NCBI GenBank assembly: GCA_964529965.1
Contig: CAZHAD010000006.1
Location: 615 to 47,244, forward strand
Length of the DNA: 46,630 bases
Direction of reading: 5' to 3'
Origin: an uncultured Leptospirales bacterium
GTDB lineage: Bacteria; Spirochaetota; UBA4802; UBA5550
Shown: piece after piece, positions 1,111 to 44,592 of the stretch
How positions within the stretch are numbered: the stretch's first letter is position 1
Layout of the letters: every line of letters begins with the position of its first letter
Notes under the pieces: model-generated
The model's input: the letters and a program-made list of their open reading frames with translations, nothing else
Database searches by the model: none
What the model was told of the DNA's origin: nothing
Program-made: the position numbers and the translations under genes

Positions 1111-2145
1111 ATGAAACTAACAGAAAACCCACTCAATATAATAATTCCTTTAATTTCTATTATAATTTTAATCGCTAATTGCTCAAATCCAGCGGGAAAA
1201 TCGTATCTCCCGCTCCTGCTTGGATCAAATTCTCAAGAATTTCAAGACACCTCATTGAGTAATGACACATCCATTTCCACAAGTATCGGTAAGATACAGG
1301 GAACCGCAATCATTGAGATACCTTTCGGCACAACTGTTGAAAGCCTGAGAGCCGCTATACAAATCGCCCCTCATGCGATTTTTGAAATAGTTGATGCCGA
1401 CGGTACGACTCCCGCCGCGACTTTGTCGCGAAATTGCCTGGTAGCGGTAACCGCTGAAAACGGCACCGAAGCATTGTATACCCTGTACATATTGCCCGAC
1501 CCGGCCATCCTGGCCGAATGGATAGGCTTTGACCCTGCATCGCCCGATTACACGATCATCAATGCCCGGAATGTGGATGGATACGATGGCAATACGGGAG
1601 CCCTCCAATTTGACGGAGATCCTGACACCCTCGATTATGTGATTATACCCGACAGCGATGCTCTGACCCTCGGAAGCAGCGGCACGGTTGAGGTGCTGTT
1701 CAGGGCGGATACGATTTTCCCGTTCGCCGGCATAGTCCACAAGGGCGAGAAAAAAGACTTCAGCGATGAATCCTGGGGCCTGCAGCTTTATTATTACCAG
1801 AATTCCCAGTCGCGCCTCCTTTTTTTGATCACGGGCAATGACGGGAACTGGATCGGCGTGCACGGCTCGTTCGATATAGTCCCGGGGCAATGGTACCACG
1901 TCATCGGGACATGGGACGAAACATCACTGCGTCTGTATGTAAACGGCGTTCTCGACGGGAGTGTGGCCAACACTACGGGCAGGGTACGGGATACGGATGG
2001 CGGGTTGATAATCGGCGCACAGCTTTCCGAAATCTACAACGGGTCTTATGGAAATCTCGGTTGGAGCGGTGTGATCGACCGGGTCATCATCAGAAGCGAT
2101 TCGGTAAGCGATGAACAAGTGATGAGCTCATACCGTGGTCTTTAA
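1111..2145 (+). CDS. Lipoprotein with Ig/cadherin-like segment and C-terminal LamG (ConA-like lectin) domain
   Basis: ATG 1111 after GGAGG; signal peptide ending IIILIAN-C; VTAENGT..YTL motif; LamG motifs GALQFDG, GQWYHVIGTWD, LRLYVNG, WSGVIDRVII. Confidence 0.8.
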   Translation: MKLTENPLNIIIPLISIIILIANCSNPAGKSYLPLLLGSNSQEFQDTSLSNDTSISTSIGKIQGTAIIEIPFGTTVESLRAAIQIAPHAIFEIVDADGTTPAATLSRNCLVAVTAENGTEALYTLYILPDPAILAEWIGFDPASPDYTIINARNVDGYDGNTGALQFDGDPDTLDYVIIPDSDALTLGSSGTVEVLFRADTIFPFAGIVHKGEKKDFSDESWGLQLYYYQNSQSRLLFLITGNDGNWIGVHGSFDIVPGQWYHVIGTWDETSLRLYVNGVLDGSVANTTGRVRDTDGGLIIGAQLSEIYNGSYGNLGWSGVIDRVIIRSDSVSDEQVMSSYRGL

Positions 2146-17345: not shown

Positions 17346-19721
17346 ATGAGTAAGAAACATATAAAAAAACCCATCGCATTCTCAGTCGTCATCCTAATTT
17401 TGATATCATTGAGCATATCAGCATCAGCCCGGGAAAAGAAAAATAAACCCTTTCGAATATTCACCAGAAGGCCGAAGGTAGGGCTTGTCCTATCCGGAGG
17501 CGGTGCCAAGGGAATAGCCCATATAGGCGTGCTGAAGGTAATAGAAAGGGCAGGGGTTCATATTGACTATATCACCGGCACAAGCATGGGAAGCATCGTA
17601 GGCGGGCTGTACGCTTCGGGCTACACCGCGGCGATGCTTGAAAAGATCGTGCTGACGGCAGACTGGGACGACCTGCTCGAAGACAAAGTATCCCGGAGAA
17701 GCGTCTCCATTGATGAAAAAAACGATCATGATAAATACCTCGGTTCCCTGCAGATAAAAAAGGGGGGCATACAGCTGCCGACCGGATACAAGCAGGGACA
17801 GAAGCTCACCTCGTTACTGTCGTGCCTCACCCTGCCGGTCCAGGATATAACTGATTTCGACAAGCTCCCCATCCCGTTCAGGTGCGTGGCGACCGATATC
17901 GTCACCGGAAACGCCTATGTACTTAAAAGCGGATACCTGCCGGACGCCCTGAGAGCGAGCATGGCAATCCCCTCGATCTTCACCCCCATCGAGATCGACA
18001 ACCACCTGCTTGTTGACGGCGGCATTGTCAGGAACCTACCGGTCTCTGATGTGCGCGAAATGGGAGCGGACCTGATCATCGCGGTCGACGTGAGCGCTCC
18101 GTTGTACAAGAAGTCGGAACTGGATTCGATAATCAACATCTTGGACCAGGTCGTCAGTTTCCTGGGAGCACGGAATACGAAGAAACAGCAGCTCCTGGCC
18201 GATATTCTTGTCCTACCTGACATCAAGAGATTCACCGCATCGGAATTCAAGCGGGGCGCCGAGCTGATCGCCGTTGGAGAGGCTGCCGGCAATCTCATCC
18301 TTCCTGAGCTTGCCACCCTGGCAGAGGCGCAAAAAAAATTTCCCGGAGAAGAACAAAAAATTCAGCCGATAAAAAGCATAAAAAAACTGAAAATCACAAA
18401 AATCGAGATACACGGATTGAAGCACGTTTCACGAAATCTTGTCCTGGGAAAGCTTCTCGTCTATCCGCCGGATAGACTGACTCCAGAAGAGCTCATGGAT
18501 GCGGTCGCGAGGGTGTATGCGAGCGGCTTCTTTGATCGGGTCACGTATCAGATTCAACCTGACGAATCTGCCTATGGGGGCTCGACCCTCATACTATCAG
18601 TCGTCGAGGCGAGCGGGATATTCCTGAAACTGGGCTTCAGCTATGACACGGACATGAATGCCGCGGTGCTGGGAAACATCACCATACGCAATCTCGCCGG
18701 CGAGGGATCCAGGTTCGCTATTGACGTCAGATTAAGCGAATTCCCCGGAATCCTGGCTTCCTACTTCATCCACACCGGCATTAGAAGGCCCGGGATCGGT
18801 TTCGGGGCGAAGATCCATTTTGACAGATTTTATATTTACACCTACCAACTGGGCAACGTTCAGTCAGTGTATGATTATTACAACACCGGAGCCGACCTCG
18901 TCATCCAGGCGATTGTATTCAATTCCACTGCTCTTGGGATCGGTGTGCAAAAAGATCTGACATTCATCAGGTCCCAGATCGCGCCCTCCGACCCCCTCAA
19001 GGACAATACGGAAGCGCTGAACTATTACGCATATCTCATGTTCGATAACCTGGACGACACCCTGTATCCCACGTCAGGGGTGCAGTTTTACGGCGAGGTG
19101 AAATATATAACGAACCACCTGACCATGCTTAAATATAGCGATAAATTTCCGAATTTTTTCAAATATACCGGTAAGTTGAAGGGATATATACCCCTCTATC
19201 CAAAACTGGTATCGCTGTACATCGGGTGCACACTTAGTTACATCAACGCGCACGAGCCTTACTATATCTATCCAGACATACTCAGTTCGACCGGTTGGTC
19301 TATATACAGAAACAGCATCCCTTTTATCTATGAGAATTATATGGGCGGTCTGTACGAGTATACCAACAACTGCTTCCCCTTTACCGGCCTGAACTTTGTG
19401 CAGATTTACGGCAAGCAGATGATTGTCGGCGACGTCGGACTGCAGGCAGAAGTGTGGAAGGATATATATCTGATACTGCACGGAAGTGTGGGCAGGGTTA
19501 AAAGCAAATTTGAAAATCTCTTTAGGAAAAGGAACCTTGTCTGGGATCAGGCTTACGGGGTTATCATACCGAGATATGAGCACCTGAAAAACGACCTGAT
19601 ATATGGATATGGAATCACCATAAGCTACAATTCAATAATTGGCCCGATCGAGGCCACGCTCATGCGCGGAAGCGAATCGAACAAATTCCTTTTTCACTTC
19701 AACATCGGATACAGGATATGA
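17346..19721 (+). CDS. Patatin-like phospholipase with POTRA and Omp85-type beta-barrel (PlpD-like)
   Basis: Signal peptide; GGGAKG, GTSMG, ASMAIP, DGG; POTRA-like IEIHGLKHVS...YASGFFDRV; barrel motifs DNLDDTLYPTSG, NSIIGPIE, C-terminal FNIGYRI. Confidence 0.9.
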   Translation: MSKKHIKKPIAFSVVILILISLSISASAREKKNKPFRIFTRRPKVGLVLSGGGAKGIAHIGVLKVIERAGVHIDYITGTSMGSIVGGLYASGYTAAMLEKIVLTADWDDLLEDKVSRRSVSIDEKNDHDKYLGSLQIKKGGIQLPTGYKQGQKLTSLLSCLTLPVQDITDFDKLPIPFRCVATDIVTGNAYVLKSGYLPDALRASMAIPSIFTPIEIDNHLLVDGGIVRNLPVSDVREMGADLIIAVDVSAPLYKKSELDSIINILDQVVSFLGARNTKKQQLLADILVLPDIKRFTASEFKRGAELIAVGEAAGNLILPELATLAEAQKKFPGEEQKIQPIKSIKKLKITKIEIHGLKHVSRNLVLGKLLVYPPDRLTPEELMDAVARVYASGFFDRVTYQIQPDESAYGGSTLILSVVEASGIFLKLGFSYDTDMNAAVLGNITIRNLAGEGSRFAIDVRLSEFPGILASYFIHTGIRRPGIGFGAKIHFDRFYIYTYQLGNVQSVYDYYNTGADLVIQAIVFNSTALGIGVQKDLTFIRSQIAPSDPLKDNTEALNYYAYLMFDNLDDTLYPTSGVQFYGEVKYITNHLTMLKYSDKFPNFFKYTGKLKGYIPLYPKLVSLYIGCTLSYINAHEPYYIYPDILSSTGWSIYRNSIPFIYENYMGGLYEYTNNCFPFTGLNFVQIYGKQMIVGDVGLQAEVWKDIYLILHGSVGRVKSKFENLFRKRNLVWDQAYGVIIPRYEHLKNDLIYGYGITISYNSIIGPIEATLMRGSESNKFLFHFNIGYRI

Positions 19722-22021: not shown

Positions 22022-25000
22022 TTATTCTTCCATAATTCGAATCGTTTCGGTAATTCGGTAAATCTTTTCAATATACTCGCGTGCCGGTCTATCCCAGTAA
22101 TATACGGATCTCTGCGCGTTTTCTCTGGCTTGAAAAATCACCGGCTCGCTGTTTTGGATAAAGAACTTCCTGGCGCGCTCCATGCAATCGTAAAAGGCCC
22201 ACGAATTATAATCGGAAAAAAGAAACCCGTTCCCCTCTATGATGTCACCCGCCACACTGATGGGAAACACCGTGTCACGCAGCCCGCCGGTTGCGCGCGC
22301 GACCACGATATCGCCCGCAGCCAGCGCTTCGAGCTGGGATATGCCCCCCGGCTCCTGCATCGACGGCATGACGAAAAGATCTGATGAAAGGAGAGGCACG
22401 GAAATATCCTGGAATCCGAACGATACGTGTACGCTATCAGGATAGTACTGGCCGAGCAGATAGAGCCCGTGGGCGATCTCTTCTCCCCTTCGGTCCCCGG
22501 ACGACACCGCTCCGCCGATGATACCCTGATAACCGAGGTTTTTGAATACCCCCGCGGAAGCCTCCAGGAGGAGCTGAAAGCCCTTTTGTTCGGATATGCG
22601 GTGGATGAAGGTGAAGACCGTGAGATCAGGGTCAGGCGTCAGTCCCCTGCTTACCTGCAACAGGAGCTTGTTTCGCATCCGTCTGACAATCCCGCGGCGC
22701 ACCGGATCCTGCAGCGATTCAACGGCGTTCGGCCCGTCGAATATCTCGGGATAGCGCGTCTCGATCTTTTCTTCAAGCGCGCGATCGGCCTTTATCTGCT
22801 CCAGGAGCTGCGGATGAAAGCGCGCTACGAACTTCAAGCCGTCGAACTTTTTTATGATGCTGGCCCTGAAATCCCCCCCGATCGCGTTGCTGATGCCGAT
22901 AACGTTACGAAGTATCCTTTCAAGCCCGTCGCAGGCGTATTCTATCTGCTTCGCATACGAGGGGCTTACGGTAATATTCCTATCGGCGAATCTGATTCCC
23001 GCGGCCATGCAGTTGAGACGGTCCGGGAATACCGGATCGCAGAAGTCGCCTGCCATCCAGGAGGGAAGGTTGAACAGGTTAAAGAGATCGAAGCCGCTTT
23101 CCCAGCGGTTGTACGCGTCGAAATACTGCCATCCTCCGTTGTGGATTATGTGCAGAAAGGTGTTTCTCCTGAAATTCGGATTATCCATATAGTACCGATC
23201 GCTCTTCACGATGGCGTTGAATATCCCCGCATACGCGTCGTTCGTGAAGGTGTAGCTTGGTTCGAGGTTGAACGCGACGATGACCTCGACGCAGGCTCGG
23301 GAAAAGGCCACCCGCCTGCGGATTTTTTCCATTCCCGTATATCCCCAGTACAGGCCGTCGAAAAACTCATAGTGATCGAGCAGGTAATAATGGATTCCCT
23401 CGACCTCGGCATGATGCACTCCCACCTCATACTCGTCGCCCATGATTCTAAACCGGACGTTTATGCCCGTATACTTCAGGGAATATTTCTTCACCGCATC
23501 ATGCATCTTCCTCACGGAGGTATCGTCTCCGTGCTTGTAATATCCCGATATCACATAAACCTTCTCACCATGCTTGACGAGCTCCCTCGGAAGCTCATAC
23601 ACCACGTTGGCGAGGCCGCCGCTCTTTGAGAAGGGCTCTGCCTCCGCCGACATGAAGACGAGAGCTCCGCGGCGATTATGCTCGATGAGGTATGCGCCGA
23701 GGGCGGCGATGATCTCCTCACCTTCTTCGGCCATGCGGCGCGCGTATCCCATGACCTCCGACGGCTGGAGAACCTTGTTATGAGCCAGGTAGAAGACAGC
23801 GCGCTTCAACCCCAGATCAAGGAAGGAACGGTGCTCCTTCCAGAAGTCATGGATCAAATGCTCTTTTATGAATGCGATCGCGGTCTCGTACGTGCCGAAG
23901 TTTTTCGCAAGCTCGGAAAATGAAAAATTTTTGTGGATCTCCTGGACGTTGGACAGGCTGCAGAGGCGGAAAAAGGAATCGCGTATGAATTCATTGTAGT
24001 GCTCCGAAATTTCGACCGGCTCCAGCTTGAGAAGCTTCACCCGCTCGGTAAAGGAAACGACCGTGTTGATTCTGCTTATTGTAAGCTCCGCGCCGGTGTA
24101 GTAGTTGAAATGACCCGTGAGGTTTGAGTACAGGGGATCGGAAAGCCGGTAATAGCTATCCGGGAGGATGGGGAGCACCGGATTGTCGAACTGAATGGAG
24201 GCGTTCTGGTTTGAGTCCGCAAAGTTGAACGCGCCGATCCAGATGCCGGTATCGACGAACTTGACCGATGCCGCCACCATGTTGTTGTTCGCCCACACCA
24301 GGTAGCCCCTGCCGAGCTCTTCGCGGTGAAACTTATACCACTCCGCGTAAAAGGTCTGAAGGCTCCGGTGCGCCGCGTACTCGAACTGGTTCCAATTGAC
24401 GTAGATGTTGTCGAGATAGACCTTCCATCCCTCGCCCTCGGCGCTTCCCTCGTAGTCCATGATCGCGCTGCTCATGAAGCAGGTGAGTCCCACCGCCGCG
24501 CGGAGACCCCTGAGGCCGAAGGTGTTGAGCGCGCGGCGCTCGTCGTGGTTCCCCAGTATCCCCAGCATCTCCGTGCCTTCCGGAAGCGAGGACGGGAAAT
24601 AGGTGTCGTACACGTGGTAGATCTCCCGCACGTCGGTCTTTCCGTGGATGATATTCTCGCATATTTTAAACAGGGACGAGTTGTAGGGGACCAATCCGGT
24701 CCGCGTGAGGAATCGCTCGTGGCCCCAGTAGCACTCCGCGATGTTCAGAAAATAATCGCGGTTCAGATCCCTTAGCTTTTTCTGGACCCTCAGCATGATG
24801 AAATAATGGATCGGCACCGCGATCAGGTCCCGGCAGGCTGAGTCATAATACCCGGTGGTGATGAAGTGGTCGTCCTCGCGTTCATTGACGATGATCGTTC
24901 CCTCCACCATGTCGGCGGGGTCCCTCTTCCTCTCGTATACGAAGGGGAAGTTGTTCTTCTTCATCATTATCGGTACCGCATGGGCTGAATCGAATCGTAT

Positions 25001-26884
25001 GCCGTCTATCTTGAATTTCTCGATAAGCGTCGTGATCGAATCAGCCAGCCATTCCCATATCTCGAACTTCCGGTAATTCAGAAGCTTGCCGTCGTTCCAT
25101 GAGCCATAGCGCCCGTCGGTCGAAGCGCGGATCACAAGATTTCCCGAATCGTCGTAGGTCCGCACCGAATAGGCGTCGGGGAGGAGCCCGCTCGAACGGT
25201 TGATGTGCGGAATGATGTCGACGATTATCCTGATGCCGATTGAGTGGGCTTTGTCAACGAGCTCGATGAACTCCTCCTCGCCGCCCAGCGTGGGCTCGAT
25301 GTCGACGAGGCTCATCGGAGAAAACGGGGAAGGGGATGTTGCATATGACGTCCAATCCTCGCGGTTGCGGCCCCTCGTCTGCACTCCCAGAAGATAGAGG
25401 GAGGTAACGCGGTAATTCCTCTTTATATCCTCCAGGTGCGCGATGATGTCTGAAAAGCGCCCGAGTCTGATCACCTCTCCATGCTCGTTATATACCAGGC
25501 CCGGATGGCCGTCACGGTCATACCAGTACGCCCTGGTGTGTCCGTGAATATCAGCAAAAATCTCGAGGATGATCTCGCCGCTGACATCGGGTATGACGTT
25601 GACCCTTCCGCTTGAGCCGGGCAGGTTGATCCAGCGGGAGTACTTGCGCTTTTTTACAAATACCAGAAAATCATAATGCCCATATTCATCAAAGCGGTAT
25701 TCCGCGGAATACTTCCCGTCTCCCTCATGCGCGAGCGGAATTTCCAGATAATCGATATCCCCTTCCAGAGAAAGCCCGCCTGCCGCGTTCGCCCGATACA
25801 GCCTCAGGATGTAGGGGGCCGGCACCCCCGGTATATCAAAGGAAAAACGTTTCAAGTGGCCGATGCAGACGTTGAAGAAGCGGGTGGCAAGGGGCGCGTC
25901 GAATTCCTTGGGATTGAATATGCGCTCCAGTATTACATTTGCCCTGTCTCTGATCTCATGCACGTCATGGCCGGATGCAGCCACGAGGATTCGTACTATC
26001 TCCCGGAGCGAATACACGTCGCCCGATGCCTTGTAACGCCTGGCGTGACGCTCGAGCGATTTTATCGCCTCAAGGTTGCGCTGGTAGTGAAAGTTGAGCT
26101 GGTCGCGCGGCATGCGCGCGTCCAGCTCGCGGAGATACCGCTGCCTGCTTGCGTCGCTGAATCTCCTGATCGGCTTCGCGGGCACGATTTCCGGTATCTC
26201 CTCGACCTCAACGAGCTGTGAATTCTGTATCACCTCGTCGACAAGAAAATTCAAGGCGGCGGAAACGTTGGGCGGATACACGACCGAATGATGGTAGCCG
26301 GTCTGTATCGCACGCTCCTCGATCATGAGGAGCAGCTTGAAAGCGTCGAAGAGCCCGCGCCCGCCCTTCCTCTGATCCGCCGTAATGGCATCGAATGTTT
26401 TGAGACCAAGGTATATGGTGGGAATCTCCGCCCAGGGAGGGCCCTGTCCCACGTGGGATATCGCCGCGGTCTCCCTGGAAACGTAAAAGATGGTGGGTAT
26501 CCCATGAAGCTCCTTGAGGATCACGAAGCGCCTGGAGATTATGCTGTCGAAATCGCCTTCGGCGATTGCCTGATGAACAGCCGCCATTGAGCCGGTCAAC
26601 CGGTTTGACAGCCTGATATCGTTTACGAGCCTTCCCTGCGTGGTCTGGTTACCCATGGAACCGAGGCTGAAAGACCTGTCCCGCATATCGATGAACCGTT
26701 CACGGTACAGCTCGACCGGGTCGCCTCCTCTTATTCCGCGTACCACGTCAGGATCCGGATAAAACTCAAAGGAACGCGACTCTTCGAAGGCCCTGGATAT
26801 TTCCTGTTTTACGATCCCATCGGAAATTAAATGCTCGTCACTGATACGGAAACGGCACAACGTGCTGGATATTACTGGTTCCAA
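22022..26884 (-). CDS. 1620-aa fusion: unknown N-terminal region + GH13 alpha-amylase-family domain + GT5 glycogen/starch synthase domain
   Basis: GH13: IIVDIIPH, DGIRFDSAH, AECYW, LGNHDE. GT5: AEAEPFSKSGGLANV, IIHNGGWQ, TVSPSYAKQI, HRISEQKG, MPSMQEPGGISQLEA, RATGGLRDTV. TTG start after GAGG. Confidence 0.9.
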   Translation of the reverse strand: MEPVISSTLCRFRISDEHLISDGIVKQEISRAFEESRSFEFYPDPDVVRGIRGGDPVELYRERFIDMRDRSFSLGSMGNQTTQGRLVNDIRLSNRLTGSMAAVHQAIAEGDFDSIISRRFVILKELHGIPTIFYVSRETAAISHVGQGPPWAEIPTIYLGLKTFDAITADQRKGGRGLFDAFKLLLMIEERAIQTGYHHSVVYPPNVSAALNFLVDEVIQNSQLVEVEEIPEIVPAKPIRRFSDASRQRYLRELDARMPRDQLNFHYQRNLEAIKSLERHARRYKASGDVYSLREIVRILVAASGHDVHEIRDRANVILERIFNPKEFDAPLATRFFNVCIGHLKRFSFDIPGVPAPYILRLYRANAAGGLSLEGDIDYLEIPLAHEGDGKYSAEYRFDEYGHYDFLVFVKKRKYSRWINLPGSSGRVNVIPDVSGEIILEIFADIHGHTRAYWYDRDGHPGLVYNEHGEVIRLGRFSDIIAHLEDIKRNYRVTSLYLLGVQTRGRNREDWTSYATSPSPFSPMSLVDIEPTLGGEEEFIELVDKAHSIGIRIIVDIIPHINRSSGLLPDAYSVRTYDDSGNLVIRASTDGRYGSWNDGKLLNYRKFEIWEWLADSITTLIEKFKIDGIRFDSAHAVPIMMKKNNFPFVYERKRDPADMVEGTIIVNEREDDHFITTGYYDSACRDLIAVPIHYFIMLRVQKKLRDLNRDYFLNIAECYWGHERFLTRTGLVPYNSSLFKICENIIHGKTDVREIYHVYDTYFPSSLPEGTEMLGILGNHDERRALNTFGLRGLRAAVGLTCFMSSAIMDYEGSAEGEGWKVYLDNIYVNWNQFEYAAHRSLQTFYAEWYKFHREELGRGYLVWANNNMVAASVKFVDTGIWIGAFNFADSNQNASIQFDNPVLPILPDSYYRLSDPLYSNLTGHFNYYTGAELTISRINTVVSFTERVKLLKLEPVEISEHYNEFIRDSFFRLCSLSNVQEIHKNFSFSELAKNFGTYETAIAFIKEHLIHDFWKEHRSFLDLGLKRAVFYLAHNKVLQPSEVMGYARRMAEEGEEIIAALGAYLIEHNRRGALVFMSAEAEPFSKSGGLANVVYELPRELVKHGEKVYVISGYYKHGDDTSVRKMHDAVKKYSLKYTGINVRFRIMGDEYEVGVHHAEVEGIHYYLLDHYEFFDGLYWGYTGMEKIRRRVAFSRACVEVIVAFNLEPSYTFTNDAYAGIFNAIVKSDRYYMDNPNFRRNTFLHIIHNGGWQYFDAYNRWESGFDLFNLFNLPSWMAGDFCDPVFPDRLNCMAAGIRFADRNITVSPSYAKQIEYACDGLERILRNVIGISNAIGGDFRASIIKKFDGLKFVARFHPQLLEQIKADRALEEKIETRYPEIFDGPNAVESLQDPVRRGIVRRMRNKLLLQVSRGLTPDPDLTVFTFIHRISEQKGFQLLLEASAGVFKNLGYQGIIGGAVSSGDRRGEEIAHGLYLLGQYYPDSVHVSFGFQDISVPLLSSDLFVMPSMQEPGGISQLEALAAGDIVVARATGGLRDTVFPISVAGDIIEGNGFLFSDYNSWAFYDCMERARKFFIQNSEPVIFQARENAQRSVYYWDRPAREYIEKIYRITETIRIMEE

Positions 26885-26894
26885 GAGGCACCTC

Positions 26895-28175
26895 TTATTT
26901 TATTTCTTTCCACATGCGGAGCGTCTGCCGGTAGAAATCGAAGGGTGGTGCCGACGCCTCGGCACGTTTGACGAGAATGTTCCGTGCCCATCTGCGCTCG
27001 GTGAATTCGCATATATCCTTTATATTCCGTCCGGTGAGTCCGTCGCTTCTGTCCCCCAGATGCGCGCATTCATCTTCAGACAGATGCCGGGCGTAATTGG
27101 AAAAGATGGCCGCCCTCTCCGCGGAGATCGGCATGGGGAAATAGATGGTCTGATCGAAGCGGCTTATCAGCGCATGGTCGAGATCGTCCTTGCGGTTGGT
27201 CGCGCCGATGGTGATGGTGCTTGTTGCTGCATCAATGCCGTCGAGCCGACGCAGCAGCACGGAGAGCACGCGGCGCGTCGCCTCGAACATCTGCTGGTCG
27301 CGCGAGCCGGCAAGGGAATCAATCTCATCGAGGAATATGATTGCGCCCCCCATGTCCTCGCACGCGTCGAAAATCTGGGACAGGTTCTGGGAAGACTGGC
27401 CATACCATTTTGACATGATCGATTCAACCGGAACGTACACCAGTGGGAATTCGGATTCGCTCGCAATGATGCGCGCCGCTGTCGTTTTGCCCACTCCCGG
27501 GGCTCCGTCAAAGAGTATGGCCCTGGGTCGGTTTGATTCATAGATTTTTCTGGTCATCCGGGCGATGGAATCGTAGAGCACGGGATTCTTCAAGGGAAGG
27601 ATGATCGATTCACGGATTTTCCGTTTCACCTCATCGTATCCGGCGATACATTCCCAGTTCAGATTCTTGTCCGGCTCCACAATGGATGAGCCCAGGGCCT
27701 TGAGCCTCAGCGCCGGATTCTGACGGTCCGATGAATTGGCCCTCTTAAACAGCTCGATGACGAGGTTGACCTCCTCCTGGGAGAGGCTTCCTTTTTTTGA
27801 TATCTCAACCCGCGAAGACGATGACAGACCGAAAAACTCGACCTTTAAATTATCAAGAACGTTTTCGGTCTTGAACATGTTCGCGTTCAGCGCCTGAAAC
27901 GCGTAATAGCCGCTGTCAAAGCCGTGCACCCTGACATGCGCAATATGCTGTTTGATGAGAAGAAGAAAATCAACGAGCATTTTGTCGGTTATGGGCTGGG
28001 ATGAAAAAGAGACGTGCGTAGATCCCTTCTCAAAGGAGATACGAGGAGGAGACGTTTCCGCCTGCGCCCCCTTTTCATAAAACGAAGAAAGCTCCTTCTC
28101 TATCTGATCCTTCATCCGGTCATAGGATATGCCGCTTTTTTCTTCTCCCGCTGTCTTTATATCTGCGCTTCTCAT
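26895..28175 (-). CDS. Classic-clade AAA ATPase with unknown N-terminal domain
   Basis: WECIAGY, GAPGVGKT, IIFLDEID, IGATNRKDDLDHALISRFD, GLTGRNIKDIC. Confidence 0.92.
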   Translation of the reverse strand: MRSADIKTAGEEKSGISYDRMKDQIEKELSSFYEKGAQAETSPPRISFEKGSTHVSFSSQPITDKMLVDFLLLIKQHIAHVRVHGFDSGYYAFQALNANMFKTENVLDNLKVEFFGLSSSSRVEISKKGSLSQEEVNLVIELFKRANSSDRQNPALRLKALGSSIVEPDKNLNWECIAGYDEVKRKIRESIILPLKNPVLYDSIARMTRKIYESNRPRAILFDGAPGVGKTTAARIIASESEFPLVYVPVESIMSKWYGQSSQNLSQIFDACEDMGGAIIFLDEIDSLAGSRDQQMFEATRRVLSVLLRRLDGIDAATSTITIGATNRKDDLDHALISRFDQTIYFPMPISAERAAIFSNYARHLSEDECAHLGDRSDGLTGRNIKDICEFTERRWARNILVKRAEASAPPFDFYRQTLRMWKEIK

Positions 28176-28713: not shown

Positions 28714-29400
28714 TCAAAAAACCACTGACTGATCAGGCAAGACCGTAAAGCGCGCGTCGCAGTCCGGACAACGGAAGGATCCGCTGCTTTTTATACGAAT
28801 AAGGGAATTGCATTTCGCACATTCGATAACCAGGGTCCCGAAATCCCCGCGGACGCTTACCCCGTCCTTCGGTACAACGCTCCGGTTTATGATCCTGAAT
28901 TCTGAACCGCAATGGGGACAAAGATATGCGCCGTCTTCGAACACGCGCACATTCGACCCGCAGGATGAGCACGCTACTATCGTGCCTCCGCGAGATGAGC
29001 GCTCTTCAGCGCCGTGAGCGGCTTCTCTCATCCCGCCGCCTTTCTGGACGCCCGCCCACAGATCGGCTTTCCGAAGTGCATCAGCCCGGGTATCGGCCAT
29101 ATGCAGATACGAGTCGAACTCCAGAACCCCGAACAGTGTCCGCATCTCTTCCGAAAGATTGAAGATCAGGAAATATCCGCCGGCGTCGGAAACTCGCTTT
29201 GCAAGAAATAAAAAAAGTCCGATCCCCTCCGAACTCGCATATGGCATGTTTTTTGCATCAAAAAGAACGATATGGATATTCCTGTCCAGAAGCTTATTAA
29301 TGTAGGCCTCTGCGTCCGGGCTGGTGGAGCTGTCAAGGGCCCCCTCGACCGCAACGACCGCGCCCCTGCCTTCGAATATCTCGGCATGATTGATTACCAC
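28714..29400 (-). CDS. STAS anti-sigma-factor antagonist with two C-terminal zinc-ribbon modules
   Basis: VEGALDSST, YASSEGIG, LIFNLSEEMRTLF; CSSC..CPHC and CAKC..CPDC. Confidence 0.85.
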   Translation of the reverse strand: MVINHAEIFEGRGAVVAVEGALDSSTSPDAEAYINKLLDRNIHIVLFDAKNMPYASSEGIGLFLFLAKRVSDAGGYFLIFNLSEEMRTLFGVLEFDSYLHMADTRADALRKADLWAGVQKGGGMREAAHGAEERSSRGGTIVACSSCGSNVRVFEDGAYLCPHCGSEFRIINRSVVPKDGVSVRGDFGTLVIECAKCNSLIRIKSSGSFRCPDCDARFTVLPDQSVVF

Positions 29401-40298: not shown

Positions 40299-41909
40299 TT
40301 ACTTCAAATTCCCGATTTTTTCAATTATAGTGGCTTCGTACGGGCGAACCGCGAAATGGAGGTCTATGAAGTGCTCGTTTGCTCCCCGATGCGTTGACAC
40401 CACCGTTTTCCATTGCCCCCGGTTACCCGCATTCAGGAACTGCTTTGTATCGGTAAAGTTCAGAATGACGCAACATTTACCGCCTTCATATTCCCTCAAA
40501 TAGGCGAGTATTCCGTTGAGCCCTTTGGAAACAGGCTTCCATGATCCGTACATCAGGGACGGATGCTTCTTTCTGGCCTCGATGAGGTTTTTATAAAAAT
40601 GAAGCAAAGAGTATCGATCGTCTTCCTGCTTTTTTACATTCACGCTTTTATAATCCATGTTGACCGGAAGCCAAGCGTCCCCGGATGAGAACCCCGCGTT
40701 CGGGCCGTCCGTCCACTGCATGGGAGTTCTGGCGCAATCGCGGCCCAGATATAACGGCCAGAACCTCCTGCCTGCCGGATCCGCGATCTTGTCCCTCGGA
40801 ATCCTCCAATTCTTCATGCCGATCTCCTCTCCATAGTAAATGAACGGGGTCCCTCTCAGGGTAAGGAGGAGCATCGCGGCGACCCTGGCGCGCTTTTCAG
40901 AGTCGGAATCGTTTTTATACCGGTTAATGCTTCTCGGCTGATCATGGTTCGAAAGGACGTGGCAGGGCCACCCGGCCTCCGGGATGCCGGCATACCACCG
41001 CTTGATGCAGCGGTAGAATCCGCGGGCGTTCCATTTGTGATACAGAAGCGAAAAATCGAACGCAAGATGCAGCTCGTCATTCCCGTTGCCGAGAAAGCTC
41101 GCCGAAATCTCCGGGTCCCCGGGGGGATAGCTGAATACCTCCCCCACCAGCATCGTGCCGCCGTACTCGTCGGTGAGCGTGCGGAGCTCGCGCATGATGT
41201 CATGGGTTTCAGGCCTGTTGCGGCTGTATTTCGCCGCCTGGTTGTCGAAGGGATTCAATGAAAAGGGGTTGCTGCGGAACCGCGCGTCCTTGACGAACCA
41301 GTTCACCACGTCAAGTCGGAAGCCGTCCACTCCGAAATCGAGCCAAAAGCGGATTTCATCGAACATAGCCTTCTTCAATTCTTCATTACGCCAGTTGACG
41401 TCGGGCTGCTCTCTAAGAAAAGAATGAAGGTAATACTGGCCGGTCCCGCCATGCCATTCCCATGCGCTGCCCCAGAAGGCGGATCGCCAGTTGTTGGGGG
41501 GCCTCCCCCTGAGGTCGTCATGCCAGATATACCAGTCTCTTTTCGCATTGTCACGCGACGAGCTCGATTCCATGAACCAGGGATGCAGGTATGAGGTATG
41601 GTTAAGCGGCATGTCCATGATGATTCGTATGTTGCGCTTGTGCGCCTCCCTGACGAGAGCGGCAAAATCATCGTGGGTGCCGAAAACACGGTCGATGCTG
41701 CGGTAATCACACACGTCGTAGCCGAAATCATGCATGGGCGACGCGTTGATCGGCGAGAGCCAGACAGCGTCCACGCCGAGATCGGAAAGATATTCGATTT
41801 TTTGAATGACGCCCTGAATGTCTCCGATGCCGTCCCCGCTGGCATCATAAAAGCTCCGGGGGTATATCTGGTACACTACCCCGTGTTTCCACCACGTCCA
41901 ATCTTCCAT
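40299..41909 (-). CDS. GH13 alpha-glucosidase / oligo-1,6-glucosidase
   Basis: WWKHGVVYQIYPRSF.D..GDGIGD, DFGYDV, NHTS, PPNNW, QPDVNW, DGFRLDV, VGE, SNHD, YYGEEIGM, RDCARTPMQW. Confidence 0.95.
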   Translation of the reverse strand: MEDWTWWKHGVVYQIYPRSFYDASGDGIGDIQGVIQKIEYLSDLGVDAVWLSPINASPMHDFGYDVCDYRSIDRVFGTHDDFAALVREAHKRNIRIIMDMPLNHTSYLHPWFMESSSSRDNAKRDWYIWHDDLRGRPPNNWRSAFWGSAWEWHGGTGQYYLHSFLREQPDVNWRNEELKKAMFDEIRFWLDFGVDGFRLDVVNWFVKDARFRSNPFSLNPFDNQAAKYSRNRPETHDIMRELRTLTDEYGGTMLVGEVFSYPPGDPEISASFLGNGNDELHLAFDFSLLYHKWNARGFYRCIKRWYAGIPEAGWPCHVLSNHDQPRSINRYKNDSDSEKRARVAAMLLLTLRGTPFIYYGEEIGMKNWRIPRDKIADPAGRRFWPLYLGRDCARTPMQWTDGPNAGFSSGDAWLPVNMDYKSVNVKKQEDDRYSLLHFYKNLIEARKKHPSLMYGSWKPVSKGLNGILAYLREYEGGKCCVILNFTDTKQFLNAGNRGQWKTVVSTHRGANEHFIDLHFAVRPYEATIIEKIGNLK

Positions 41910-41925
41910 TATGCCTGCGGCGCTC

Positions 41926-44592
41926 TTACGCCGCGGTGTTTAAATCTTTCATGAACCGCGTGATAATGGTGTCCGGATCGTATTCACCGGCCCGTTTGAG
42001 CGATTCCTTTCTGAACGACTCCCTCAAGTCGATGTTTTTGAGATACTCAATGATCTTTGCAGCCATCTCAGACCTGGTTTTCACCAGATAGCCGTTAAGT
42101 CCGCTGACGATGATGTCTTTGGGGCCCTTGGTGTTGTAGGCTATGACGGGGAGGCCGCAGGAAAGCGCCTCAAGCACCACGCAGCCGAAGGTATCGAAAC
42201 GCGAGGGGAGAACCAGCATGTCGGCTGCAGAATAGATGTCGGGGAGCATGTCCTGGTCAACCCACCCAAGATAGGTCGCGTCCGGCAGCGCTTCTTTGAG
42301 GTCCTTCTCCCTGGGCCCTGATCCGGCGAAAGCCATGTGCACATCCGGATACGCAGCGCGGACTTTTTCAAAAATGGACGGAATCTCCATCACCCCCTTT
42401 TCATCGGAGAGCCTTCCGGCGAACAGGAGCACGGGCCTGCCGTTTTCAACGTTAAAAATGCTTTTCTTGTCGGACGATCTGGGGCTGAAACCCTTATCCG
42501 CCCAATGCGCGGTGAGGAATACCCGCGAGGGATCGAACCCCATGTCCCTGCCGATGAGCCATTTCCACTGCTCCTTGTTGAGCACGAAAAGGCCGTCAAA
42601 CCCTTTGTAAAAAGCCCGGAGCATGCGTCTCAGCCTGCTCATGTTCTTTTCATCCAGGCGCAGCGTTTTCTCCGCGAACGTCATCCAGTCGGTATGCACG
42701 TAGAAATAAGCGGGCACGGAATATGCGTACTTCAGATACAGGGCGGCAAACCCCATGGGGCCCTCGGTCGAGCAGATTATTCTGCTGTACTCGCCTTCCT
42801 TGAAAAGCTTGTGGATCTCGAGGATATTGGGGATCCGCACCGGCTGCTGCTCATAAAATGAAAGCCTGAATTCAGATAATGGTTTCAGGACGATCAGATG
42901 ATCCCCGGATTCAAGATTGTTGCTTGCAATAAGCATGTCTATGGGCAGGTCCCTCCTCCTGATCTCCTCCAGCATTGATTTGAGGACCATGGCCACTCCG
43001 TTGGAGTCCTCAAGGGTGTCCGTAAGCCAGAGCGTCCTTTCCGGATGGCGCAAGGTGCCGTGAATCTCGGCAAATTCATATAGGAGGGGGCGCGTCTTAT
43101 ACATCACCCGCGCGCTGGTGTAGAAAGCTGCCAGTATGACGGCCAAGGCAAGGAAGGGAAAAGAGAGACCGTCGAGCAGCTCCGGCAGATTAAGCGATTC
43201 CTCATGCATGTTTATCACCGAGGCATCGTCGTCGAACAGCGAGCGGATATGCGCGGGAATCTCTATCCTGTTGATTATATCTTCCACCCCGATCGACAGG
43301 ACATCCGATTCGCGGTCCAGCTTTTCGATTTTTTTCTCAATCCGATTAATCAACGTCAGGTTGAGATTTTCATATATTTCGCATATCGACGAGTCGAATG
43401 CACCGAGGGATCGTTCCGGTTCGTCCCGGCGGATCACCGCCATACTTTGGGCAAGCCTGAAGACTTCCTTGTATGCCTTCGGCACAAAGAGGCGCTTGGT
43501 TCTTGGCGGAACTTTGCCGCTGAAACTGTCATGGAATATCTTTAAAAAATTGAGCGTGGTCTTGTGCCGTTTCAGCTCACTGAATCCGTTTGCGATCATA
43601 AAGGCGATGAGCTTGTCCCTGGTCTCGCCTTTGTGGAGGAGAATCCTCATCATACCGGGATCGCGCATGTTGATGCCGACCTGGCAGAAATAATCGAGAA
43701 AGGCGACAGCCATCTTCTCGCTGTCATTATGCGAGCCGAACGGTGCCATGAGGCCCTTTCGTATCGCGTCAAGGGCGAGCTCTGATGTCTTCTTCCCGGT
43801 GATCGCTTTCAGACCCGGTACATGGAGCCTGGTCCCGGTCAATCCGGTAAAGATGCCCATGTGGTCGTCCGAGCCCCCGGACATCGCCTTCAGGTACGGG
43901 TTGCGGCAGTAGCGGCCGGAGGGAATCTTAAATTTCCTTGAAAATAATTCTATCTTTTCTTTATTCAGCGACTCGAGCCATGTTTTCACCAGCATGTTCT
44001 GCCAGGTGTCGCGCTGGCCGTTTATCACCTCGAAACGCTCGAACAGAAGGGCCATTTTATTGAAAAAATCGACGGGCGGAAGACTGTTCAACTTGTATTG
44101 ATACAAGGGATGCGCCCAGACGGTGGGGATGTCGTGCTCGGCCGCGTATTCCTGGAATTTGTACACGTCGCTCCTGAGCCTGGCGAGCCACTTTTCCTGG
44201 TCCTGCGTGAACCCGTACGCCAGCACATGTATGCCGATCTTGTAATCAGGCACCATGCAACTCCATTCCGCCCCGGGCAGGATGTCGTAACCCCTGTCGA
44301 TGTACTCCCAACATGACCGCGCATTGTTATGGTTGGTGATCGTGAAGGCGTCGGAGCCGTGCTCCCTGAGCACGCTTAGGAGCCTCTCGGTCGAAAGCCA
44401 TGTCTCGGGAAGACCCAGTATCCTGCCGAGCAGCTCGTCAGGAACGCTGCTGTGGTGATCGTGGCAATGGAGATCGATGGTCAATGTTTCATCTTGAGGA
44501 AACCGGCGCGATTCGCGCAGCATGAACTCATTGAGCATGCCTTCGACCTGCCGGTTAAAAGATTTTTCATGGTTCATATATTTTTTGTTCAT
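41926..44592 (-). CDS. PHP-phosphoesterase domain fused to GT4 glycosyltransferase
   Basis: PHP: IDLHCHD, TITNHN, GAE, HVLAY, WAHP, FEVING, GGSDDH. GT4: TDTLEDSNGVA, GRLSDEKG, PSRFDTFGCVVLEALSCGLPV. Start at ATG 44592 or 44577. Confidence 0.88.
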   Translation of the reverse strand: MNKKYMNHEKSFNRQVEGMLNEFMLRESRRFPQDETLTIDLHCHDHHSSVPDELLGRILGLPETWLSTERLLSVLREHGSDAFTITNHNNARSCWEYIDRGYDILPGAEWSCMVPDYKIGIHVLAYGFTQDQEKWLARLRSDVYKFQEYAAEHDIPTVWAHPLYQYKLNSLPPVDFFNKMALLFERFEVINGQRDTWQNMLVKTWLESLNKEKIELFSRKFKIPSGRYCRNPYLKAMSGGSDDHMGIFTGLTGTRLHVPGLKAITGKKTSELALDAIRKGLMAPFGSHNDSEKMAVAFLDYFCQVGINMRDPGMMRILLHKGETRDKLIAFMIANGFSELKRHKTTLNFLKIFHDSFSGKVPPRTKRLFVPKAYKEVFRLAQSMAVIRRDEPERSLGAFDSSICEIYENLNLTLINRIEKKIEKLDRESDVLSIGVEDIINRIEIPAHIRSLFDDDASVINMHEESLNLPELLDGLSFPFLALAVILAAFYTSARVMYKTRPLLYEFAEIHGTLRHPERTLWLTDTLEDSNGVAMVLKSMLEEIRRRDLPIDMLIASNNLESGDHLIVLKPLSEFRLSFYEQQPVRIPNILEIHKLFKEGEYSRIICSTEGPMGFAALYLKYAYSVPAYFYVHTDWMTFAEKTLRLDEKNMSRLRRMLRAFYKGFDGLFVLNKEQWKWLIGRDMGFDPSRVFLTAHWADKGFSPRSSDKKSIFNVENGRPVLLFAGRLSDEKGVMEIPSIFEKVRAAYPDVHMAFAGSGPREKDLKEALPDATYLGWVDQDMLPDIYSAADMLVLPSRFDTFGCVVLEALSCGLPVIAYNTKGPKDIIVSGLNGYLVKTRSEMAAKIIEYLKNIDLRESFRKESLKRAGEYDPDTIITRFMKDLNTAA

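Follow-up and report, generated by a model that had tools for sequence, protein, structure and literature searches.

A 46,630-nucleotide stretch of contig CAZHAD010000006.1 (GenBank assembly GCA_964529965.1), from an uncultured Leptospirales bacterium of the phylum Spirochaetota and here called the window, carries a gene that joins a GH13 (alpha-amylase family) domain and a GT5 (glycogen/starch synthase) domain in a single protein, hereafter the fusion. The fusion is one genuine, conserved chain of uncultured Spirochaetota, and we give roughly even odds (about 0.5) that it works on its own as a cytoplasmic alpha-glucan synthase, with a transglycosylase or branching domain built into the chain. 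We favor this reading because the catalytic residues of both GH13 and GT5 are invariant, no other candidate was found in the window's own family (f1), the GH13 part has a local likeness to branching enzymes, and the fungal synthase Ags1 provides a precedent. Bacterial glycogen synthesis is taught as the work of three enzymes, GlgC, GlgA, and GlgB; family f1 appears to keep one fused enzyme plus the degradative side. By its domain composition and sequence matches, the fusion appears to be an uncharacterized bacterial example of the "synthase plus GH13" theme that has been met only in uncultured spirochaetes and shows an unexpected kinship to GT5 enzymes of eukaryotes.

The gene is a single uninterrupted open reading frame over the whole length given in the initial annotation (Table 1). 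Its start codon, read from the sequence, is a TTG at position 26884, and the GAGG preceding it abuts the stop codon TAA (26895-26897) of an upstream AAA-ATPase gene. The 120 homologues listed of 261 are 1,500 to 1,653 residues long, share 58 to 98% identity with the fusion, and cover 93 to 100% of it, so the assigned start is roughly correct. Those with names are annotated as "glycogen/starch synthase," "glycosyltransferase," or "hypothetical protein," and nearly all come from metagenome-assembled genomes (MAGs) of Spirochaetes/Spirochaetota. The highest mean Kyte-Doolittle hydropathy of any 19-residue window of the protein is 1.22; since no window exceeds this value, no transmembrane segment or signal peptide is predicted, in agreement with the initial annotation, and the protein is expected to be soluble and cytoplasmic.

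When 301 Spirochaetota genomes were searched in six frames, 57 of them yielded the fusion as one stop-free frame. It was present in 43 of the 45 genomes of the window's own order and absent from three large families of the phylum (0/45, 0/38, and 0/28 genomes); a second family, f13, has it in 12 of 17 genomes. When one genome per species was scanned across 185,579 species, 141 fusion loci were confirmed. The best 80 of these 141 all lie in MAGs, single-amplified genomes, or metagenome assemblies, with no cultured isolate among them, and their labels are Spirochaet- or Leptospir- in 75 cases and something else or nothing in 5. Logan contigs from four sequencing runs (X1 to X4) tile the gene with no joints or loose ends, and one of them (X2, record 11, spanning 23484-24307) crosses the whole linker between GH13 and GT5; all four runs are labeled salt marsh metagenome and possibly stem from one campaign, which may include the source sample. 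An assembly join is ruled out by the full-length homologues, the 57 one-frame genomes, and the contigs that span the domain junction.

The C-terminal domain bears the two-domain GT-B signature and the active-site residues that place it, by sequence, in the GT5 superfamily. Pfam detected Glyco_transf_5 (PF08323; residues 1076-1326, E = 4.7e-37, 128.4 bits against a gathering score of 22.7) and Glycos_transf_1 (PF00534; residues 1418-1561, E = 8.7e-13, 48.6 bits against 26.4). For conservation, we aligned 27 family members, that is, the window's protein and 26 picked from the 120 listed homologues, with 58 to 85% identity to the window's protein. K1087, G1089, G1090, L1091, N1215, D1216, R1429, K1434, E1511, and the TGGL loop are invariant in this set, and HMMER aligned R1429, K1434, and E1511 with the RxxxQKG motif and the E-x7-E catalytic Glu of Escherichia coli GlgA, whose R300, K305, and E377 we take to be the counterparts in number and role. 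The initial annotation was thus right that KSGGL, R...QKG, and the catalytic Glu are retained. NCBIfam GlgA models gave 140 to 202 bits versus equivalog cut-offs of 459 to 870, and the best canonical GlgA scores (201.8 versus 603 bits and 197.2 versus 328.45 bits) did not reach their cut-offs. The fusion shares both Pfam families, KxGGL, RxxxQKG, and the Glu with GlgA and the plant starch synthases (E. coli GlgA, 2qzs/3d1j; rice GBSSI, 3vue; barley SSI, 4hln) but, unlike GlgA, is extended at the N terminus by about 1,066 residues, among them a GH13 domain with intact catalytic residues. Its N-terminal GT5 half is closest to rice GBSSI and barley SSI, in which CNDWH and VNDWH align with the TNDAY of the fusion (TND, residues 1214-1216). 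Because these active enzymes carry the aligned xNDWH, FTNDAY is the normal state in one branch of active GT5 rather than the diverged GlgA motif it had been taken for. An insertion annotated at about 55 residues came to approximately 36 residues relative to E. coli GlgA in the HMMER alignment, not clearly 55.

The GH13 part was modeled with AlphaFold as residues 1-1050 (39-row alignment, mean predicted local distance difference test [pLDDT] score of 87.1), and residues 1-330 were modeled in addition (pLDDT 88.1). The larger model predicts a (beta/alpha)8 barrel with B and C domains that holds the catalytic Asp, Glu, and Asp of the GH13 alpha-amylase family. These three acids, all noted in the initial annotation, are invariant in the 27 members (D632, E717, and D781, with 85 residues between the first two), as are D556 and H560 of region I, R630, H635, and H780. 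Regions I and II align to the Lactobacillus plantarum amylase 3dhu and to branching enzymes; regions III and IV were assigned by motif position against what we take to be the consensus. The Pfam Alpha-amylase match is weak but above threshold (E = 8.5e-8, 32.3 bits versus a cut-off of 22). No carbohydrate-binding module was matched by Pfam in the fusion, and the beta-sandwich in front of the barrel is structurally part of the GH13 module, an arrangement also seen in neopullulanase/TVAII and GlgE; when TVAII, GlgE, and other structures are aligned to the model, the match begins at model residues 331-343.

With respect to subfamily, VIA structural alignment gave 3dhu as the highest match (Z = 32.2, root mean square deviation 2.8, 383 residues aligned), values of 27 to 31 for many GH13 enzymes, including Halothermothrix orenii amylase, SusG, and TVAII at 30 to 31, and a total of 994 of 1,000 chains at Z of at least 8. 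By sequence, the best match to a solved structure was again 3dhu (E = 3e-9), followed by GH13_8-type branching enzymes (E = 2e-8), with which the fusion shares W-D-x-x-L-x-N-Y ... DG-x-RFD across regions I and II. The likeness to the GH13_8 and GH13_9 branching enzymes is local to these regions, and both have a beta-sandwich before the barrel. NCBIfam matches to the GH13 part were likewise local only, to GlgB, GlgX, TreZ, MalA, and cyclomaltodextrinase models; PRK05402 scored 33.7 bits versus its cut-off of 741, and an Atlas search with the GH13 domain returned generic alpha-amylase clusters only, with no clear subfamily.

The check for stand-alone glgA, glgB, and glgC that the initial annotation proposed was run on the window's genome (G000; 3.36 Mb, 93% complete): it turned up none of them; the fusion is the sole GT5 there, and no GlgB, GlgC, or GalU reaches its cut-off. 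The genome does encode GlgX, glycogen phosphorylase, a second alpha-glucan phosphorylase, and MalQ, as well as TreY, a contig-truncated TreZ, a GH57-DUF3536 protein beside TreY, and, within the window, an alpha-glucosidase-like GH13 of 546 residues. GT5 occurs in 61 of 61 genomes of the order, and in f1 (G000 and 10 others) it is the fusion only, in 11/11. An extra GlgA of 480 to 550 residues is found in families f2, f3, f4, f6, and f56, and a divergent GlgA in part of f5. GlgC is present in 33 of the 61 genomes (f1, 0/11; f4, 0/7), GlgB above cut-off in 2 (f1, 0/11), and the C-domain of the GH57 branching enzyme in 25 (f1, 0/11; f5, 0/10; f6, 0/10). Families f2 and f3 have a complete set of GlgC, GlgA, and GH57 branching enzyme alongside the fusion; f6 has an ordinary GlgA and GlgC beside it, and no known branching enzyme was found there. 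GlgX is above cut-off in 20 of 26 f1 genomes, and the closed 3.2-Mb f1 genome G092 encodes exactly three GH13 proteins, namely, a 540-residue alpha-glucosidase-like protein, GlgX, and the fusion. In f1, the fusion is the only GT5 found and the only GH13 apart from the debranching enzyme and the alpha-glucosidase-like protein, and we infer from this gene content that GH13 transfer, most plausibly branching, may be the work of the fusion in this family. Where the full GlgA pathway coexists, the fusion has been kept beside it, which suggests a distinct role or product.

Several other glucan and sugar-nucleotide genes were noted in these genomes. The GH57-DUF3536 gene (806 residues) adjoins treY at G000:C19:35404-40619, with the truncated treZ at G000:C23:3-956, and together they are probably a cluster for making trehalose from glucan that this organism acquired. 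As a hidden branching enzyme of f1, the GH57-DUF3536 protein was rejected, since G000 is the one genome among the order's 61 that has it; feeding of TreY/TreZ was likewise dismissed as a general role of the fusion, as 13 of 301 genomes have TreY and G000 is the only one of them in f1 (0/20 others). An 844-residue fusion of a sugar-1-phosphate nucleotidyltransferase and a phosphohexomutase (G000:C13:24208-26739; best match the mannose-1-phosphate guanylyltransferase model, 251 bits, below cut-off) was detected in 30 of the 301 genomes, every one of which belongs to that order; as a supplier of the glucosyl donor it was discarded, since it is not codistributed with the fusion (f1, 10/20; f13, 0/17; f6, 0/3). 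A PF01704 UDPGP gene, of the eukaryote-type UDP-sugar pyrophosphorylase family, lies at G000:C44:11592-12611, and the family is present in 164 of 301 Spirochaetota genomes and in none of 14 control prokaryote genomes. The 546-residue GH13 of the window (40302-41939, minus strand; PF00128, 463 bits) is of the oligo-1,6-glucosidase/trehalose-6-phosphate hydrolase type, with homologues of near-identical length in all four other genomes checked, namely, G092, G188, and G327 (f1) and G305 (f6). Two f4 genomes, G291 (C60:21185-21871) and G314 (C124 and C1), have frames of about 1,429 residues with a weak GT5 N-domain (32 to 51 bits), each beside a weak GT5 gene of 427 to 444 residues, which constitute another multidomain GT5 architecture; in G291, the N-terminal and GH13 part of the fusion was not found in the six-frame search.

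To place the fusion in a wider context, we searched 1.84 billion representatives with residues 1-1050, which contain no GT5, and obtained 358 matches; domain order was scanned in the 56 distant relatives of at least 600 residues among the matches listed. GT5 is also carried by 33 of these 56 and follows GH13 in 32, and 22 show GH13 only, many of them truncated by contig ends. The named relatives are two proteins of Candidatus Omnitrophota (P0145, 4,169 residues, and P0178, 3,211 residues), a Galdieria "starch synthase" (1,698 residues), and an Acytostelium protein (2,136 residues), and a search with the last added dictyostelids, Physarum, Paramecium, Blepharisma, Porphyridium, and Blastocystis. 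Many eukaryotic relatives are on record with CBM48 families (PF16561/PF02922) plus GT5 families, the CBM48 assignment being that of the database records. These eukaryotic relatives, from red algae, dictyostelids, ciliates, and Blastocystis, are the cytosolic UDP-glucose GT5 glycogen/starch synthases, which the literature describes as UDP-glucose enzymes "of ancient eukaryotic ancestry" and simply as GT5. In the Omnitrophota giants, as in P0192, P0203, and P0209, the GH13-then-GT5 pair sits deep inside the protein; strongly hydrophobic segments lie upstream of it in P0145 (hydropathy 2.66 at residue 833) and P0178 (2.02 at residue 1134), and judging from these segments, both may be membrane anchored.

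In an alignment of 25 GH13-GT5 proteins, the position of the E. coli HxHD is taken by xND or xNE in 24, and P0185 has the His. An intact GH13 triad is found in the two spirochaete rows as well as in P0127, P0137, P0145, P0178, P0185, P0192, and P0253. The eukaryote-type rows have the region IV Asp replaced in 14 of 14 and the region I His changed to Arg in 11 of 14, and their KxGGL reads TxGGL in 13 of 14 and SxGGL in 1. A quick IQ-TREE analysis of 40 GT5 domains, from which the partial rows P0209 and L062 were dropped, included as canonical GT5 this order's GlgA only, and the "bact" labels of P0127 and P0137 in it are assumptions; a search of genome contigs yielded no locus for P0137. Ten stand-alone GlgA proteins of the same order were split from the fusions by a branch with support of 100. 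The five spirochaete fusions formed one clade (100), sister to P0127 (98), and 17 eukaryote-type rows formed another (100), with P0137 as the nearest row (89); the spirochaete clade joined the eukaryote-type rows only at a support of 50, and the deeper joins were weak. On this tree, the fused GT5 appears as a deeply branching lineage, separate from the GlgA of the order.

The eukaryotic GT5 synthases, e.g., Galdieria XP_005707965, are retrieved by the GH13 part of the fusion alone (E = 1e-9 to 1e-19 for the aligned rows), have the same order of beta-sandwich/CBM48, GH13-like domain, and GT5 and the same xNDW motif, and have GT5 domains that the tree places on the same side as the fusions. Unlike the fusion, they lack the region IV Asp, the KxGGL lysine, and the domain formed by residues 1-225. 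The initial annotation had considered the well-known GH13-GT5 fusions to be fungal; the order of domains is indeed shared with Ags1/Mok1, in which GH13 is N-terminal to GT5 in one chain, but that picture was incomplete, as Omnitrophota proteins and the eukaryotic GT5 synthases are built likewise. Ags1, moreover, has a signal peptide and a multi-pass membrane domain, and its GH13 is extracellular, whereas the fusion has no hydrophobic segment and ends with GT5. No Ags1 was named among the matches, and the likeness to Ags1 noted here is one of domain order. We presume the order in the chlamydial GlgA-GlgB fusion to be GT5 then GH13. Its branching domain is reported inactive, and the dinoflagellate fusion is described as a true BE2 with an SSI/II-type GT5, unlike the spirochaete fusion. 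Fusions named in the literature are chlamydial GlgA-GlgB, Neisseria MalQ-GlgB, dinoflagellate BE2-GT5, myzozoan BE2-GT4, and fungal Ags1, and the string "Spirochaet" is absent from 300,000 of the 445,374 characters of a 2024 Chem Rev review. We found no published description of the spirochaete fusion, in keeping with its earlier flagging as a candidate undescribed system, although the supplementary GT5 trees of PMC7965971 and of a 2026 preprint might hold bacterial fusions.

In the reading we favor, the GT5 domain would elongate alpha-1,4 chains from a nucleotide-glucose, either UDP- or ADP-glucose, and the GH13 domain with its beta-sandwich would cut the growing chain and reattach the segments, by branching or by chain-joining transglycosylation. 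One protein would yield a glycogen-like polymer, to be dismantled later by GlgX, phosphorylase, and MalQ. As to the donor, no GlgC was found in f1, and the eukaryotic relatives are UDP-glucose enzymes but have Thr or Ser for the KxGGL lysine. A cytoplasmic synthase with GH13 had already been proposed in the initial annotation: the single chain, the cytoplasmic location, and the two intact, conserved centers all stand, and the role of GH13 is what we infer. A number of observations weigh against our interpretation. In structural comparison, plain amylases, neopullulanases, and GlgE match the GH13 core about equally well (Z = 27 to 32), and branching enzymes rank lower, the first at Foldseek rank 50; the GlgB model TIGR01515 scores 24.6 bits versus a cut-off of 463.95, so the fusion is not a GlgB. 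GlgX could serve imported dextrins, and its presence is then no proof of branching in the cell. Apart from the single-contig G092, the f1 genomes are MAGs that are 89 to 99% complete. In f2, f3, f4, f6, and f56, an ordinary GlgA stands beside the fusion, which is not a simple replacement there, and the GH57 branching enzyme also coexists with it in f2 to f4. None of 17 fusion loci has glycogen genes as conserved neighbors. The PF01704 UDPGP gene, considered as a specific partner, is present in 45 of 45 genomes of f1 to f6 and 17 of 17 of f13, yet in 164 of 301 overall, a distribution compatible with partnership but not diagnostic of it.

Could the GH13 domain instead be a hydrolase that trims chains, frees malto-oligosaccharides, or makes primers for GT5, with no transfer or branching? 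We regard this as unlikely, though small intracellular amylases give the best structural matches (3dhu, 32.2; H. orenii, 30.7; Thermotoga maltogenic AmyB, 28.0), and H560 and H780 are kept, versus an active-site histidine reported lost in fungal GH13 transglycosylases in PMC12305055. If the synthase were joined in one chain to an enzyme that hydrolyzes what it makes, the result would be a futile cycle unless tightly controlled, and f1, in which no branching enzyme was found, has kept GlgX. Branching enzymes and GlgE themselves keep the region I and IV histidines, so H560 and H780 do not exclude a transferase. That the product is another polymer, an alpha-1,3-rich glucan as for Ags1 or a distinct second glucan pool, seems to us quite unlikely. 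The domain order shared with Ags1, the distance of the GT5 lineage from the order's GlgA, and the presence of the fusion beside complete GlgC/GlgA/GH57 branching enzyme sets in f2 and f3, suggesting a nonredundant product, would fit it; however, the eukaryotic GT5 relatives are described as alpha-1,4 glycogen/starch synthases, the GlgX of f1 and the phosphorylase and MalQ of G000 act on alpha-1,4/1,6 glucan, and Ags1 is missing from the named matches.

A GlgE-like route within one chain, in which GT5 would make maltose-1-phosphate as GlgM does and GH13 would polymerize it as a maltosyltransferase, is very improbable. GlgE, a GH13_3 enzyme, is the first Foldseek match of the GH13 part (E = 5.8e-21), with a Z of 29.8 over about 500 residues including the beta-sandwich N-domain, and H635 follows the nucleophile at a distance of three residues, which we take to be the spacing in GlgE. 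However, GlgE ranks below 3dhu and is tied with many other GH13 enzymes, no GlgE-specific family is among the Pfam or NCBIfam matches shown for the fusion, and the GT5 is of the GlgA/starch synthase type rather than a GT4 GlgM; maltokinase, though such a route would not need it, was found in 0 of 4 f1 genomes. We see hardly any more room for the GH13 domain being a scaffold that holds the glucan for a processive synthase, its catalytic residues relics, as is probably so in the eukaryotic relatives, which retain the domain despite the losses of the region IV Asp and region I His given above. Against this, the catalytic residues and the four conserved regions are invariant in the 27 spirochaete sequences, down to 58% identity, and the triad recurs in the seven distant relatives from P0127 to P0253 named above, as would be expected of a working active site.

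A more far-reaching version of the synthase-with-transferase reading, which we consider rather doubtful, is that the fusion is a one-protein glycogen pathway, with GT5 using UDP-glucose, GH13 branching, and no need for GlgA, GlgB, or GlgC; together with the Omnitrophota giants and the metagenomic relatives, it would be the intact prokaryotic ancestral form, and the N-terminal region of the eukaryotic enzymes would be a decayed GH13. The eukaryotic kinship bears on the origin of the UDP-glucose GT5 synthases and would explain their long N-terminal regions. If GH13 does branch or join chains, the fusion would be a minimal, portable alpha-glucan synthase, useful for designer glucans. It would also provide a soluble model for the coupling of synthase and transglycosylase proposed for Ags1, in which, according to PMC12305055, GT5 makes the chains and GH13 joins them by transglycosylation.

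The N-terminal part, previously an unrecognized stretch of some 430 residues, was resolved into three modules (1-225, 244-323, and the beta-sandwich at 335-443), of which the first is still without a detectable relative. Many of the first 330 residues are invariant in the 27 members, e.g., R118, R119, E125, E189, R191, H199, H306, D307, and H309, and because of this, the region likely has a function and is not a spacer. Within residues 1-225, G146, G148, and G196 are conserved as well. This domain matched no Pfam family and no Foldseek PDB entry at E of at most 1e-3, having been modeled only within larger constructs, so it may still have a known fold; the VIA-align rows listed covered only residues ~232-330, and an Atlas search with the N-terminal region scored at most 0.85. 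Our guess is that it is most likely regulatory or binds substrate or primer. A loop at about 224-243, disordered in the model, leads to the HEAT-like hairpins, whose Z of up to 10.1 is the generic level for helical repeats and in which G305-H306-D307 and H309 are invariant. The hairpins were weakly detectable by phmmer in 6 of 55 distant representatives (P0127, P0137, P0187, P0240, P0250, and the fragment P0131), 5 of which have GH13 and GT5. The helical linker between GH13 and GT5 is conserved within the close family only.

Table 1. Position of the fusion gene, its modules, and key residues in the window
Feature	Residues	Position in window	Strand	Basis or remark
Whole fusion gene	1-1620	22022..26884	(-)	1,620 codons + stop; TTG start; 1,620-residue product
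Shine-Dalgarno GAGG		26891..26894	(-)	6 nt 5' of TTG start; read from sequence
Family-specific alpha/beta-plus-helical domain	1-225	26210..26884	(-)	Models, pLDDT ~88; strongly conserved
Two HEAT-like helical hairpins	244-323	25916..26155	(-)	Resemble HEAT/armadillo repeats (VIA, Z of at most 10.1)
Beta-sandwich N-domain	335-443	25556..25882	(-)	Model strands; precedes GH13 barrel; CBM48-like by position
GH13 catalytic domain (A/B/C)	444-956	24017..25555	(-)	Fold match and invariant motifs
GH13 nucleophile	D632	codon 24989-24991	(-)	RFDSAH motif
GH13 acid/base	E717	codon 24734-24736	(-)	AECYW motif
GH13 region IV Asp	D781	codon 24542-24544	(-)	NHDE motif
All-helical GH13-GT5 linker	959-1066	23687..24010	(-)	Helices 959-1049, pLDDT ~90
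GT5 (GT-B) glycogen/starch synthase domain	1067-1620	22025..23686	(-)	Pfam, NCBIfam, alignments
GT5 Lys of KSGGL	K1087	codon 23624-23626	(-)	Invariant in 27 members
GT5 catalytic Glu	E1511	codon 22352-22354	(-)	Aligned to E. coli GlgA
Extra stretch of GT5	~1340-1400			Between the two Rossmann halves

Around the fusion gene, holA is the only conserved neighbor, following it in 11 of 17 loci, with a small open reading frame between the two in 8 of 17. The upstream AAA-ATPase and QueF genes accompany the fusion in all four f1 loci inspected and in none of the other 13. The former (26895-28175, minus strand) encodes a single-module AAA ATPase of the CDC48/CdvC/PAN type, 426 residues long with about 165 unassigned N-terminal residues, and QueF is encoded just upstream of it. 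At 17346-19721 on the plus strand, a 791-residue protein fuses a patatin phospholipase to POTRA and an Omp85 barrel, which looks like what we take to be a PlpD-type arrangement. Finally, loci of f1, f2, and f3 share, close to the fusion, a conserved 228-residue protein (28714-29400, minus strand) in which several zinc-ribbon motifs come after an N-terminal STAS domain.

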